From assembly GCA_040390125.1 (NCBI GenBank), contig JAZJYZ010000001.1, positions 243,026-307,025 of the forward strand: a stretch of DNA of 64,000 bases. Direction: 5' to 3'. The DNA comes from Patescibacteria group bacterium (GTDB lineage: Bacteria > Patescibacteriota > Minisyncoccia > Phycocordibacterales > Phycocordibacteraceae). Below, piece after piece: positions 5,031 to 21,621 of the stretch (positions are counted from its first letter, which is position 1; every line of letters begins with the position of its first letter). The translations under genes were made by a program, and so were the position numbers. Under the pieces are notes generated by a model. The model ran no database searches. It was not told the DNA's origin and worked only from the letters and a program-made list of their open reading frames with translations.

Positions 5031-5194
5031 ATTATTTTTAATTTTTTAAGTAAGGTAAGAAAGTAAATAACTTAAGACTGATATTGCATAGTCGACCTAG
5101 TGTAGAAGCCGTTTTAAGACTAGTCTTATTACACTAAACTTCCTTGATTTGTTCGCTGTAACTAACGATTCGTGGTATGAATTGACTGTCCTAA

Positions 5195-5242
5195 GGAGAG
5201 GTGGCTGAGTGGAGAAAACAAGAACTGCTTCTTGTTTTCTCC
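5195..5242 (+). other. tRNA-Ser-like 5' fragment (acceptor/D-arm-like GGAGAGGTGGCTGAGTGG) running into a perfect 14-bp hairpin; not foldable as a complete tRNA
   Basis: 5195-5212 matches the canonical 5' end of type-II tRNA-Ser genes. It is followed by ggagaaaacaagaa-ctgc-ttcttgttttctcc (5211-5242). I found no matching 3' acceptor strand within a plausible distance. Confidence 0.35.
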
Positions 5243-5359
5243 GATCCTGTTTCAGGAAAGTTCGTTGCCGAGTCAAAAACGAGGCAGAACTTAGGAGGGC
5301 GAACTTGTTCGAACGCTCGGCCTCCTATACTCTTAGTCTTTGTCGCTTTGCGACAAATA

Positions 5360-5447
5360 GGAGAGGTGCCAGAGCGGTCGAATGGAGCACACTGCTAATG
5401 TGTTGAACCTCAAAAGGGTTCCGAGGGTTCGAATCCCTCCCTCTCCG
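5360..5447 (+). tRNA. tRNA-Ser (anticodon GCU), type II with long variable arm
   Basis: Acceptor GGAGAGG/CCTCTCC. The D-arm contains GCCAGAGCGG. The anticodon stem is GCACA/TGTGT with loop CTGCTAA (anticodon GCT). The variable arm is TGAACCTCAAAAGGGTTC. The T-arm is GAGGG-TTCGAAT-CCCTC, with discriminator G. A terminator follows. Confidence 0.8.
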
Positions 5448-5460
5448 CAAAATAAAAAAT

Positions 5461-5488
5461 GGGTGCTTTTGCACCCGCTTTTTTATTT
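5461..5488 (+). terminator. rho-independent terminator after tRNA-Ser
   Basis: gggtgc-tttt-gcaccc hairpin followed by gcttttttatttc. Confidence 0.65.
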
Positions 5489-5614
5489 CTGCTACGAGAG
5501 TCGGGATTCGAAAGTCGGAAGTGCGCCTGCGGGGCAGGAGGGAGCGCTGAGACGGGGTCGAGAACATTTAGTATTTTACGAGCTCCAGGAGTAAAATACT
5601 TAGTGATTCGTGAC

Positions 5615-5633
5615 CGAATCCCTCCCTCTCCGC
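5615..5633 (+). other. 19-nt exact duplicate of the tRNA-Ser 3' end (cgaatccctccctctccgc), 167 nt downstream of the intact tRNA
   Basis: It is identical to 5430-5448. The upstream sequence does not fold as a T-arm, so it appears to be a tRNA 3'-end remnant or att-like direct repeat. Confidence 0.5.
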
Positions 5634-5729
5634 TCACTAGAAAATACGCCCCACATGGGGCAATTTTCTTGAAAAACCCCTTTCCACACCCCATCCGTTC
5701 TTCTACGCTCTACTTGCTAGACTTCACGT

Positions 5730-6773
5730 ATGGCTACCATTACCAAGTACACGCAAGTTGAGTATCTTTGGCTCGACGGACGTAAGCCCACAGCGGGACT
5801 TCGCTCCAAGACCAAAATTATTAAAGGTGCTGTTACAAAATTAAAAGATATACCCGAGTGGGGCTTTGACGGCTCTTCGACAGAACAAGCAGAAGGAAGA
5901 TTTAGTGATTGCCGGCTCGTACCGGTTTCTTTCTTGCCTGATCCTCTTCGCTTGCCCGCCCAAGCGGGATGGGCTCCGAACATTCTTGTGATGTGCGAAG
6001 TGTTACAAGCAAATGGTGATGTGCATCCAACAAATACTCGTGCGGAACTTCGTGCAGTCGCTAAGAAATATCAAACTGTCGATTCGTGGTTTGGTATTGA
6101 GCAAGAGTACACACTGTTTCAAAATGGCAGACCACTTGGATTTCCAGAGACAGGTTTTCCTGGGCCTCAAGGTCCGTATTATTGCGGTGTTGGTGCAGAG
6201 AACGTAGTTGGCAGAGAGTTAGCAGAAGAGCACATGAGTGCGTGTCTTGAGGCAGGCATCGCACTTTCAGGAATTAATGCGGAAGTGATGCCGGGACAAT
6301 GGGAATTTCAAGTTGGTCCCGTGGGACCCCTTGCTGTGTCCGATCAACTTTGGATTGCGAGATGGTTGCTTGAGCGATTAGGTGAAGAATTTAATATCAG
6401 TGTTTCGTATGCACCAAAGCCTGTTGCCGGAGATTGGAATGGTGCAGGTTGTCATACGAATTTTTCAACAAAAGCAATGCGGGCTCCTGGCGGAATGAAA
6501 CACGTGAAGGCGGCGTGCGAAAAACTAAAGAAGAAACATCACGAACATATTGCAGTGTACGGGGCAGGGAATGAGGCACGACTTACCGGGCGTCACGAAA
6601 CCTGCAGTATTAATGAGTTTCGCTACGGTATTTCTGACCGTGGAGCATCCATCAGAATTCCTATGGCAACGGCAAACGATGATAAGGGATATCTTGAAGA
6701 TAGACGTCCCGCTGCAAACATGGACCCGTACCAAGTGTGCGCTGCGTTGATGAAGACGATTTGCGGAAATTGA
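5730..6773 (+). CDS. glnII: glutamine synthetase, type II (eukaryote-like GlnII)
   Basis: At 347 aa it is typical of GSII. Motifs present: WFGIEQEYTLF, GPYYCGVG, MPGQWEFQVGP, NGAGCHTNFS, ASIRIP. Confidence 0.85.
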   Translation: MATITKYTQVEYLWLDGRKPTAGLRSKTKIIKGAVTKLKDIPEWGFDGSSTEQAEGRFSDCRLVPVSFLPDPLRLPAQAGWAPNILVMCEVLQANGDVHPTNTRAELRAVAKKYQTVDSWFGIEQEYTLFQNGRPLGFPETGFPGPQGPYYCGVGAENVVGRELAEEHMSACLEAGIALSGINAEVMPGQWEFQVGPVGPLAVSDQLWIARWLLERLGEEFNISVSYAPKPVAGDWNGAGCHTNFSTKAMRAPGGMKHVKAACEKLKKKHHEHIAVYGAGNEARLTGRHETCSINEFRYGISDRGASIRIPMATANDDKGYLEDRRPAANMDPYQVCAALMKTICGN

Positions 6774-6853: not shown

Positions 6854-6896
6854 GATTGGTTTTTTTGGCGTGCATTAGTGAGTTTCACTCTGTAGA

Positions 6897-7511
6897 ATGG
6901 GCATCATGACTGCAAAACCTATCTTAGGTGTTGATTTTGATGACGTGTTGGTCCGAACCGGCAATGCTCTTGCAGAATTTCATAACGCCACCTACGGCAC
7001 CACGTATTCTCGTGATGATGTTTCGAGTTTTCATCTGCATGAGGTGTGGAACTGTACTCCAGAGGAAGCACGTGCAAGAATCGACGAGTTTATTTCGACA
7101 GAATTTCACCATAACTCTGAAGCAGTGTTGGGTGCGTACGATGCACTAAAACAGTTAAGCCAAACGTACGAGATTGTGATAGTGACTGGGCGCATGCATG
7201 TGTGGCGTGACAAGACCATTGAATGGCTTGAGAAAAATTTTCTTGGCCTATATAGAGAAATACACTTTACAAACCACGATGACCCCGATCCTTCCAAGCG
7301 TCGCTTGAAATCTGAGTTCGTCACCGAGCTTGGTATCTCACTTTTTATTGATGATGCATTGAAATTTGCTACCGATGTTGCAAGTGTTGGTGTTCCCGTT
7401 CTTCTCTTTGATACCCCTTGGAATCAAGGGGAAGTGCCTCCGGGGGTAACACGAGTACACTCGTGGGACGAGATTTTGCGAACACTTGCTTCAAAAGAGA
7501 CAGGGAAGTAG
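6897..7511 (+). CDS. HAD-superfamily hydrolase, 5'(3')-deoxyribonucleotidase (NT5C)-like
   Basis: HAD motif I GVDFDDVL (DxDxV) near the N-terminus. Length and C-terminal layout are consistent with the NT5C family. Confidence 0.55.
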   Translation: MGIMTAKPILGVDFDDVLVRTGNALAEFHNATYGTTYSRDDVSSFHLHEVWNCTPEEARARIDEFISTEFHHNSEAVLGAYDALKQLSQTYEIVIVTGRMHVWRDKTIEWLEKNFLGLYREIHFTNHDDPDPSKRRLKSEFVTELGISLFIDDALKFATDVASVGVPVLLFDTPWNQGEVPPGVTRVHSWDEILRTLASKETGK

Positions 7512-21351: not shown

Positions 21352-21621
21352 ATGCCTCACTTTGTGTATATTCTTGAGTGTGCCGACCCAACACTCTATG
21401 TTGGGTCTACTAATGACTTAGAGAAAAGGCTCAGGCAACATAACCTGGCAAAGGCAGGAGCCCATTACACAAAAATAAGACGGCCGGTCGTTTTGAAGTA
21501 CGCCGAAGAGGTCCCCACGTTTGAGGGAGGTCGTGCCCGTGAGGCCGAAATTAAGAGGATGACCAGAAAAAGCAAGCTAAAGCTCATTGAGTCGAAAACC
21601 ACCCTAGTCAATTCGATGTAG
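21352..21621 (+). CDS. GIY-YIG nuclease superfamily small protein
   Basis: HFVYILECADPTLYVGSTNDLEKRLRQHN...R...E..K matches the GIY-YIG core. Length is 89 aa. Confidence 0.75.
   Translation: MPHFVYILECADPTLYVGSTNDLEKRLRQHNLAKAGAHYTKIRRPVVLKYAEEVPTFEGGRAREAEIKRMTRKSKLKLIESKTTLVNSM

Follow-up and report, generated by a model that had tools for sequence, protein, structure and literature searches.

A putative RtT-like unit behind tRNA-Ser(GCU) and the apparent stump of an older tRNA gene in a Patescibacteria group bacterium

Units that end in a copy of a tRNA 3' end are known from the Escherichia coli tyrT operon. This operon contains 178-bp repeats, each of which ends in the last 19 nt of tRNA-Tyr and is a source of the rtT RNA; 3.14 repeats are present together with a Tpr-like open reading frame (ORF). 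RtT has been a curiosity of E. coli for 45 years. Here, a comparable unit, termed X, is described behind the tRNA-Ser(GCU) gene of a Patescibacteria group bacterium. The window, i.e. the whole stretch of DNA analysed, comprises 64,000 nt (assembly GCA_040390125.1, contig JAZJYZ010000001.1, positions 243,026 to 307,025 of the forward strand). All coordinates are positions in this window, and L-numbers (e.g. L082) denote fetched comparison loci. With moderate confidence, and as one joint reading, X is interpreted as an RtT-like unit, a divergent variant outside the curated model with a 19-nt duplicate of the tRNA 3' end as its last part, and a tRNA-Ser-type 5' fragment upstream of the tRNA as the stump of an older, overwritten tRNA-Ser(GCU) gene. 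The kind of element is already known from E. coli; this member stands out by its attachment to tRNA-Ser, its host resembling the Candidate Phyla Radiation (CPR), and its combination with an apparently overwritten tRNA gene.

In E. coli MG1655, the order tyrV, spacer, GGGGAAGGATGAGAAG, core and AATCCTTCCCCCACCACCA was found in repeated form, with rttR and tpr annotated. In the fold of the E. coli unit, a helix P1 (GGGGAAGGAU/AAUCCUUCCCC) closes a multi-branched core, and CACCACCA forms the tail. The four E. coli units scored 133-137 bits with the Rfam RtT model (rttR, RF00391), which has a gathering cut-off of 45 bits. A discrete rtT RNA is made by E. coli from such a unit, according to the passage of PMC3318445 that cites Bosl & Kersten (1991).

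A single tRNA was called by ARAGORN in the 64-kb window, tRNA-Ser(GCU) at 5360-5448, and the Rfam tRNA model gave 55.1 bits at 5360-5447, where the original prediction, made from the sequence alone, had placed an intact gene. The exact duplicate of the tRNA 3' end predicted downstream was also found: the 19-mer CGAATCCCTCCCTCTCCGC occurs at 5430-5448 and 5615-5633 (19/19 identical), with a gap of 166 nt between the copies. In the window these were the only two occurrences: allowing up to 3 mismatches gave no third match, and 100 shuffles gave 0. The direct repeat extends weakly beyond the tRNA (31 nt, 87% identity). Between the two copies lies an inverted one, so that the tRNA 3' strand is present three times in the order direct (tRNA), inverted (IR-L) and direct (IR-R). 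Unit X spans 138 nt (5496-5633) and consists of IR-L, a three-way core and the direct copy; in the predicted fold, 5496-5509 are paired with 5616-5630 to form P1. The sequence GGGATTCGAA at 5503-5512 is the perfect complement of the T-loop and T-stem at 5428-5437, and the hairpin of an intrinsic-terminator-like element is the centre of an 85-nt palindrome at 5428-5512 (-44.6 kcal/mol, z = -8.6). The apical part of helix P2 (5528-5543) contains another inverted, though imperfect, copy of this 3' end, TGCGGGGCAGGAGGGA (81% complementary), which was not seen in L109 or L134.

Compared with RtT, X lies likewise directly downstream of the tRNA on the same strand and ends in the 19 3'-terminal nucleotides of the tRNA, beginning in the T-loop (19/19 in the window, AATCCTTCCCCCACCACCA in E. 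coli). The start of the unit complements this copy (GGGGAAGGAT versus AATCCTTCCCC in E. coli) and closes a multi-branched fold, with the acceptor strand plus CCA as 3' tail. Similar spacings were found, with 159 nt in E. coli and 166 nt in the window. Tandem units are possible and were seen in L175, L093 and L098. The window differs from E. coli in having a single unit without tandem repetition of the whole unit and without a Tpr-like ORF, in the sequence of core and junctions, and in the presence of a terminator hairpin between tRNA and unit. Furthermore, the cognate tRNA is Ser (in other loci sometimes Arg) instead of Tyr, the host is a CPR/Patescibacteria-like bacterium instead of an enterobacterium, and RF00391 misses the window unit and most others. 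The unit is termed RtT-like because all architectural features of RtT were found, with a single unit in the window, while the sequence model did not recognise it.

The curated model did recognise one member of the wider set, namely the unit after tRNA-Ser(CGA) in L113, which scored 47.8 bits; units in L094, L093 and L098 scored 29-33 bits, i.e. below the cut-off. For the Xanthomonas RNA sX4, 156 nt were expected and 280-300 nt were detected (PMC3300014). At L113:2274-2543 the sX4 Rfam model gave 74.6 bits (cut-off 70) over tRNA-Ser plus spacer, with an overlap of about 20 nt with the start of the RtT match, and sX4 may not be a small RNA of its own but belong to a tRNA-RtT transcript.

Metagenomic sequences were scanned with a pattern consisting of a tRNA 3' end, 145-175 nt and an 18-mer, which resulted in at least 120 matches. 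Tandem tRNAs explained only 17 of the 126 matches listed, and at least 111 tRNA-Ser genes (anticodons GCU, CGA, UGA and GGA) carried an orphan copy of their 3' end. Among the matches listed, the inverted T-loop sequence GGATTCGAA was present in 69 of 126 spacers, and extended repeats in 18 of 126. The spacers fall into several subfamilies with a common plan: spacer or terminator, inverted copy, core of about 100 nt, and direct copy. In this plan, the inverted copy comprises, in reverse complement, the T-loop and the 3' strands of T-stem and acceptor (GGGAGGGATTCGAA). Short tandem arrays of units of approximately 87-92 nt, in up to four or more copies, were observed in L135, L172, L186 and L200/L210; these units lack the large core and are made up of a tRNA-Ser 3' end with a terminator-like hairpin plus a small filler.

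The window unit could be aligned with 12 others, following the pattern GGGATTCGAA-G.CGGA-[hairpin]-(C)TGAG.CGG-[hairpin]-GTGACC-GAATCCC. In this 13-sequence alignment, RNAalifold detected compensatory changes in 15 of 22 pairs. A covariance model built from it (R1) gave 82-116 bits on its 13 seed sequences, among them the window unit itself (94 bits, 5491-5633), 27-50 bits over the full length of units of other subfamilies, and about 25 bits on plain T arms. The strand of the tRNA gave the better fold in 57 of 62 non-redundant units (mean difference -5 kcal/mol; the units are purine-rich), and for the window unit the values were -57.6 kcal/mol for the tRNA strand versus -43.9 kcal/mol for the opposite strand. 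Searches with the Rfam models gave no match to transfer-messenger RNA (tmRNA), two-piece tmRNA, signal recognition particle (SRP) RNA, 6S RNA, Y RNA, group I introns or known self-cleaving ribozymes. Comparison by eye with the motifs of the hammerhead ribozyme and SRP helix 8 was without success, and literature searches for a described tRNA-Ser-linked RNA found none. A dedicated protein partner was considered and rejected, the neighbouring genes of the units being ordinary tRNA-Ser synteny (serS, tadA, comF).

The ends of the units match the tRNA next to them. In L105, a locus not selected by the pattern, tRNA-Ser(UGA) ends in GAATCCCACTCCCTCCGC and is followed by a window-type core with the identical ending, and the unit starts with the complement of its own tRNA end (GGAGTGGGATTC). 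L175 contains three isoacceptors with three different 3' ends, and the near-identical core after each of them ends in the local sequence. This locus (L175:6910-8577, minus strand) has tadA between the three tRNA-Ser genes, each of which carries one or two units, partly in tandem; in the most distal copy, the 3' end is diverged and lacks CCA. Units are also located behind tRNA-Arg(GCG), at L164:869-1110 and L169:1695-1794 (minus strand), with the inverted part fitted to the Arg T arm. In L164, one core subfamily occurs at both tRNA-Ser and tRNA-Arg with locally adapted ends, and in the L169 unit the inverted copy is present and the 3' direct copy absent. The start of X (GAGGG-ATTCGAA) was also considered as a direct half of a T arm with a 3-4-nt target duplication, which was rejected since the L169 tRNA-Arg unit fits the reverse complement only. 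Gene conversion, repeated duplication or selection are candidates for how units originate and stay matched to their tRNA. In tRNA-Ser(UGA) at L134:74-160, a C5.U68 acceptor mismatch (GGAGCGG versus CCTCTCC) was observed, as if the 3' end had been swapped from another tRNA-Ser.

Two mutually alternative pairings of the inverted copy are available in most of the loci, with the tRNA strand in 56 of 64 and with the direct copy in 45 of 64. In the window, the tRNA 3' strand pairs with IR-L around the terminator loop; alternatively, IR-L pairs with the 19-mer.

The second part of the reading concerns the 18 nt GGAGAGGTGGCTGAGTGG at 5195-5212. They differ from the 5' end of the inner tRNA at 3 of 18 positions; in more than 15 fetched loci, genuine tRNA-Ser genes begin with exactly this sequence. 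Sequence comparison confirmed that this tRNA-Ser-type 5' end runs into a perfect 14-bp hairpin (5211-5224/5229-5242, 100% complementary, loop CTGC, 2-base overlap with the fragment), as had been stated originally. The loop context AA-CTGC-TT recurs in L205, L182, L208 and L156, where it belongs to the 5' hairpin of full-length units. A tRNA-Ser origin, as proposed for both flanking fragments, is supported by these comparisons; the 5' fragment and the 3' copy have separate origins.

Closer relatives were reached via homologs of the glutamine synthetase (GS) encoded next to the locus and via their contigs; in a GS-protein search of genome contigs no syntenic tRNA-Ser was found in 80 loci. The type II GS of the window is 64-68% identical to the GS of Uhrbacteria and other groups. 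L082 (GS 87% identical) has one intact tRNA-Ser(GCU), without fragments and without unit. The flank 5' of the intact tRNA in L082 and L089 aligns to window positions 5150-5194, i.e. to the flank of the outer fragment, with the pattern TTGTTCGCT..AATTCGTG.TATGAATTGAC.GT.CTAA and then GGAGAGG; the flank of the inner window tRNA gave no alignment with the upstream flank of L082/L089. The window sequence 3' of the 19-mer copy aligns with the flank behind the tRNA in L082 and with the flank behind the orphan copy in L083; L089 was also aligned. Since the upstream and downstream flanks both align with those of relatives, both ends of the ancestral gene appear to be still in place, with its interior gone.

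Two alleles of the tRNA can be distinguished. The tRNAs of L082 and L109 (type A) are 89% identical to each other; the outer fragment is 1-2 mismatches away from them and 3 from the inner tRNA. The inner tRNA (type B) is 84% identical to the L112 tRNA and 73% to the tRNAs of L082 and L109. Because the fragment sits on the promoter flank of the relatives' single tRNA, the ancestral type A gene is suggested to have been overwritten by a segment with a different allele. A segment of about 235 nt, consisting of the hairpin, a filler termed Y and the 5' part of a type B tRNA-Ser(GCU) allele, would have replaced positions 19-55 of the resident type A gene; the old promoter and the first 18 nt of this gene would have been left in place. 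In L109, a type A tRNA is followed by a terminator and a unit X resembling that of the window, and terminator and X are therefore probably old in the lineage of the window.

L112 is syntenic with the window (comF, pilM to pilC) and shows the same layout in a richer form, with two 5' fragments of 20 and 24 nt, each followed by a perfect hairpin, a pseudo-tRNA, a tRNA and two units. An intact gene for an 80-aa GIY-YIG protein (UPF0213-type; L112:6914-7153, minus strand) was observed between the tRNA-Ser(GCU) 5' fragments at approximately 7196-7215 and 6878-6901. It is bordered by direct repeats of about 105 nt and resembles a nuclease cassette in the D-loop region of a tRNA gene. GIY-YIG genes are located directly 5' of tRNA-Ser in four further loci. 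A nuclease-driven replacement of the tRNA interior is possible; the mechanism of replacement is a conjecture. A GIY-YIG homing nuclease as general cause was rejected, as such a gene adjoins the tRNA in only 5 of about 120 loci and lies 16 kb away in the window. The only GIY-YIG gene of the window (21352-21621, plus strand, 89 aa) is located between pseudopilin genes and a PIF1/RecD-like helicase gene, 16 kb from tRNA-Ser and with no tRNA fragment close by; its product and the L112 protein are related (32% identity). That Y might be the remains of a GIY-YIG gene, or a homolog of the L112 filler, was also rejected (no similarity, no ORF remnant). Y has stop codons in most frames and contains a T-arm-like palindrome at 5292-5327.

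The other relatives indicate that the locus is prone to rearrangement, in line with the original prediction of a recombination hotspot. Apart from the overwritten tRNA and the break of synteny at this site, L089 (1-105; GS 87%) carries tRNA-Ser(GCU) together with its upstream flank in inverted orientation to GS, the unit is missing in L082, and no tRNA is present upstream of GS in L086 and L090, the cyclophilin gene being flipped in L090. In L083 and L085 (GS 85%), the tRNA 3' end is followed by 152 nt and a second copy; the spacer differs from that of the window, and the unit belongs to another subfamily. The L082 tRNA runs directly into the orthologous downstream flank, as at an empty site of an integrated element; loss of a unit by recombination between the repeats would explain this equally well. 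The Logan contigs L001, L083, L085 and L089 break in the T arm or immediately in front of it; heterogeneity of the population or shared 3' ends of tRNA-Ser may be the cause. The features of the window locus are compiled in Table 1.

Table 1. Features at the tRNA-Ser(GCU) locus of the window; the assignment of the first two to an ancestral gene is putative
Feature	Start	End	Strand	Evidence
Promoter-side flank of putative ancestral tRNA-Ser(GCU)	5150	5194	+	Alignment to L082/L089 flanks
Putative truncated 5' end of ancestral type A tRNA-Ser(GCU): acceptor strand and half D arm, ends in D loop	5195	5212	+	
Perfect 14-bp hairpin with CTGC loop, immediately 3' of break point	5211	5242	+	
Remainder of filler Y, structured, non-coding	5243	5359	+	Fold z = -5.1
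Intact tRNA-Ser(GCU), type B allele	5360	5447	+	ARAGORN and Rfam
Intrinsic-terminator-like hairpin, stem 5460-5477, T run 5479-5488	5449	5488	+	
IR-L, inverted copy of tRNA 3' strand, GAGAG-TC-GGGATTC; 5' strand of closing helix P1	5496	5509	+	
Core of unit X: junction GAAA, P2 5514-5553 (GGA/GA internal loop), GG, P3 5556-5615	5510	5615	+	Fold
IR-R, exact 19-nt tRNA 3'-end copy; P1 3' strand (5616-5622, 5626-5630 paired) and short tail	5615	5633	+	
Second terminator-like hairpin, closes unit	5648	5672	+	Flank orthologous to flank after tRNA/unit in L082, L083, L089

The neighbouring genes encode an FN3 protein, a cyclophilin, a cation efflux protein, GS, NT5C, a ComF-like protein, PilM and PilB; type IV pilus genes are thus present, which, together with the GS identities given above, fits a CPR/Patescibacteria bacterium. 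At 5685-5700, a motif TTTCCACA(C/G)CCC was observed that is kept in the window, L082, L083 and L089, whatever sequence precedes it. It is located approximately 40-60 nt 5' of the GS start codon and may be a promoter or regulator site.

X is a structured element and, by analogy to E. coli, is probably transcribed. Reading through the first terminator, transcription would include X with or after the tRNA, and its RNA would derive from the tRNA transcript; the tRNA-processing enzymes would then release X and trim its tRNA-like 3' end, as reported for rtT RNA. The RNA would form a three-way junction closed by IR-L and IR-R and would end like a tRNA, with the acceptor 3' strand and the discriminator. 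For IR-L, two alternative partners would be available, the tRNA's 3' strand and the decoy copy. As a working guess based on this analogy, X could be an acceptor-arm mimic of the cognate tRNA or a switch coupled to it. In tmRNA and the bacterial Y RNA YrlA, an acceptor-type helix and 3' end are likewise joined to a non-tRNA domain. X differs from these in lacking a T arm or D-loop analogue, in that its helix is a continuous duplex of the tRNA 3' strand, and in having no Rfam match.

Several results weigh against the interpretation of X as an RtT-like unit and of the upstream fragment as a stump. The Rfam RtT model gave no match in 5050-5750, even at E<=10, and of the 35 X-bearing loci that were scanned only 1 passed its cut-off. 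In favour of a link, R1 places the four E. coli units first, though they reach only 12 bits, which are essentially due to P1. Because no significant sequence match was obtained, the homology between the window subfamily and RtT would rest on architecture and position. A sigma-70-like promoter was not found, and a strong intrinsic terminator lies between the tRNA and X. As the loci were picked by an exact 18-mer pattern, the frequency of the units cannot be read from the counts; among unselected tRNAs, only 2 of 314 have such a copy. In support of the structure, an alignment of 29 sequences gave 92.3% of cells paired versus 70.2% in shuffles, 109 double-change cells versus 36.5 in shuffles, and a covariation score of 0.276 versus at most 0.052 with slid partners; the sequences had, however, been aligned by fitting to the model, and this favours structure. 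Perfect palindromes make up many of the stems, and snap-back at the DNA level could make these as well. The patchy presence in close relatives and the tandem arrays are as compatible with a selfish or mobile element as with a functional RNA; an element that is mobile and yet encodes an RNA is also possible. With respect to the stump, filler Y has no homolog: past the 18-nt 5' fragment, no BLAST match was obtained in any fetched locus.

The original prediction regarded the duplicated 3' end as the scar of an attachment (att) site. In this explanation, a tyrosine integrase encoded elsewhere would have recombined a small circle, i.e. a miniature non-autonomous element, at the T-loop, or an island would have been deleted down to its arms; the 3'-end copy of the element would now finish the tRNA, and the original end 166 nt downstream would be attR. 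The repeat spans the region from the T-loop to the discriminator, as at tRNA-targeting att sites, and begins in the crossover region of integrases, which supports the original prediction; a sublocation rule for such sites was reportedly formulated by Williams in 2002. Relatives whose GS is 85-87% identical differ in the presence of the unit. A single tRNA may carry different subfamilies and tandem arrays, in which divergence is greater in the distal copy (L156, L175, L112), several copies per genome are located at different tRNA-Ser genes (L138, L141, L175), and CCA is slightly commoner on the orphan copy than on the tRNA gene (6 versus 1 cases). Like attL/attR pairs and cis-mobilizable elements, the locus thus has a direct tRNA 3'-end repeat from the T-loop and a variable presence among relatives.

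The reading as a simple scar was not supported. The 166 nt contain no credible gene, only short overlapping ORFs, and the copy is base-paired within a conserved unit. No recombinase domain was detected by a Pfam scan of the neighbours, i.e. the ten largest ORFs within the first 14 kb. In viruses, 0 of 41 orphan 19-mer copies carry the unit, these copies being ordinary partial tRNAs; the unit pattern gave 0 matches in 2.9 million viral contigs, and blastn against phages and plasmids matched the tRNA part only. Different from attL/attR and cis-mobilizable elements, the window has neither integrase nor cargo, and has an inverted copy, a conserved folded core and locally matched ends. In L175 and L164, the same core lies between locus-specific 3' ends on both sides, which would not be expected if an element with a single attP had moved. 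Nor do att arms show an inverted copy fitted to the local tRNA, covariation of the RNA type or a strand bias. An att scar is therefore regarded as rather unlikely. A retro-origin via tRNA-primed reverse transcription was rejected, since it predicts one copy resembling a primer binding site and not an inverted plus a direct copy; the CCA bias is too weak.

X could also be a neutral by-product of replication. Snap-back or template switching at the T arm and the terminator hairpins would have led to a direct-inverted-direct triplication that was later remodelled, and the structure would consist of DNA palindromes. The order of the copies is exactly that of a tandem inversion duplication, a rearrangement said to have been described by Kugelberg et al. 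in Salmonella, and the junctions lie at natural hairpins. With the terminator loop at its centre, 5428-5512 forms a single long palindrome, many of the stems are both perfect and AT-rich, and further sense and antisense tRNA-like pieces occur in Y and in the X core. Unlike such a duplication, the unit has a conserved core that separates the inverted copy from the second direct one, and it shows evolutionary conservation and strand bias. Left unexplained are the cores of about 100 nt whose junctions and loops are conserved across very divergent loci, the preference for one strand, which depends on G.U pairs (57 of 62 units), and the recognition of one member by the curated RtT model. The discrete rtT RNA of E. 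coli, as reported in the cited passage of PMC3318445, also counts against a by-product, which is considered quite improbable.

That the flanks are atypical tRNA genes (intron-containing, split or permuted), an alternative mentioned originally, or parts of one giant tRNA-Ser enclosing the inner gene, is highly improbable: GGAGAGG at 5195 is complementary to CCTCTCC at 5626-5632 and 5195-5636 fold with z = -10, but neither ARAGORN nor Rfam (E<=10, scan of 5050-5750) found a tRNA, intron, tmRNA or other family in the flanking segments, as expected from the original statement that these do not fold as tRNAs, the D-arm 3' half, a 7-nt anticodon loop, a variable arm and the T-stem 5' strand are absent outside the inner tRNA, both fragments together lack positions 19-55, X closes itself without the upstream fragment in the fold, and L109, L134 and L105 have X without such a fragment.

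Repeats of tRNA 3' ends are routinely taken as integration scars and are used to delimit genomic islands; with units of the RtT-like kind, there would be a second, recurrent source of such repeats. The RtT phenomenon would be widened well past the Rfam model, with the cognate tRNA extended from Tyr to Ser and Arg and the range from E. coli to metagenomic contigs, including the CPR-like window, most of these units being invisible to the curated model. As a tentative proposal, RtT may represent a minor branch within a wide, largely unrecognised class of structured RNAs that are coupled to tRNAs and reach from CPR bacteria to proteobacteria, each made from an inverted and a direct copy of the 3' strand of its own tRNA. 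Such an RNA could act as a cis switch or as an acceptor-arm mimic that couples maturation or availability of the tRNA to a signal, and could spread between tRNA genes. The comparative constraints, namely co-variation of the ends with the cognate tRNA, a pair of helices that exclude each other, and conserved junctions, make an RtT-type function experimentally approachable, and the wider pattern merits a dedicated survey.

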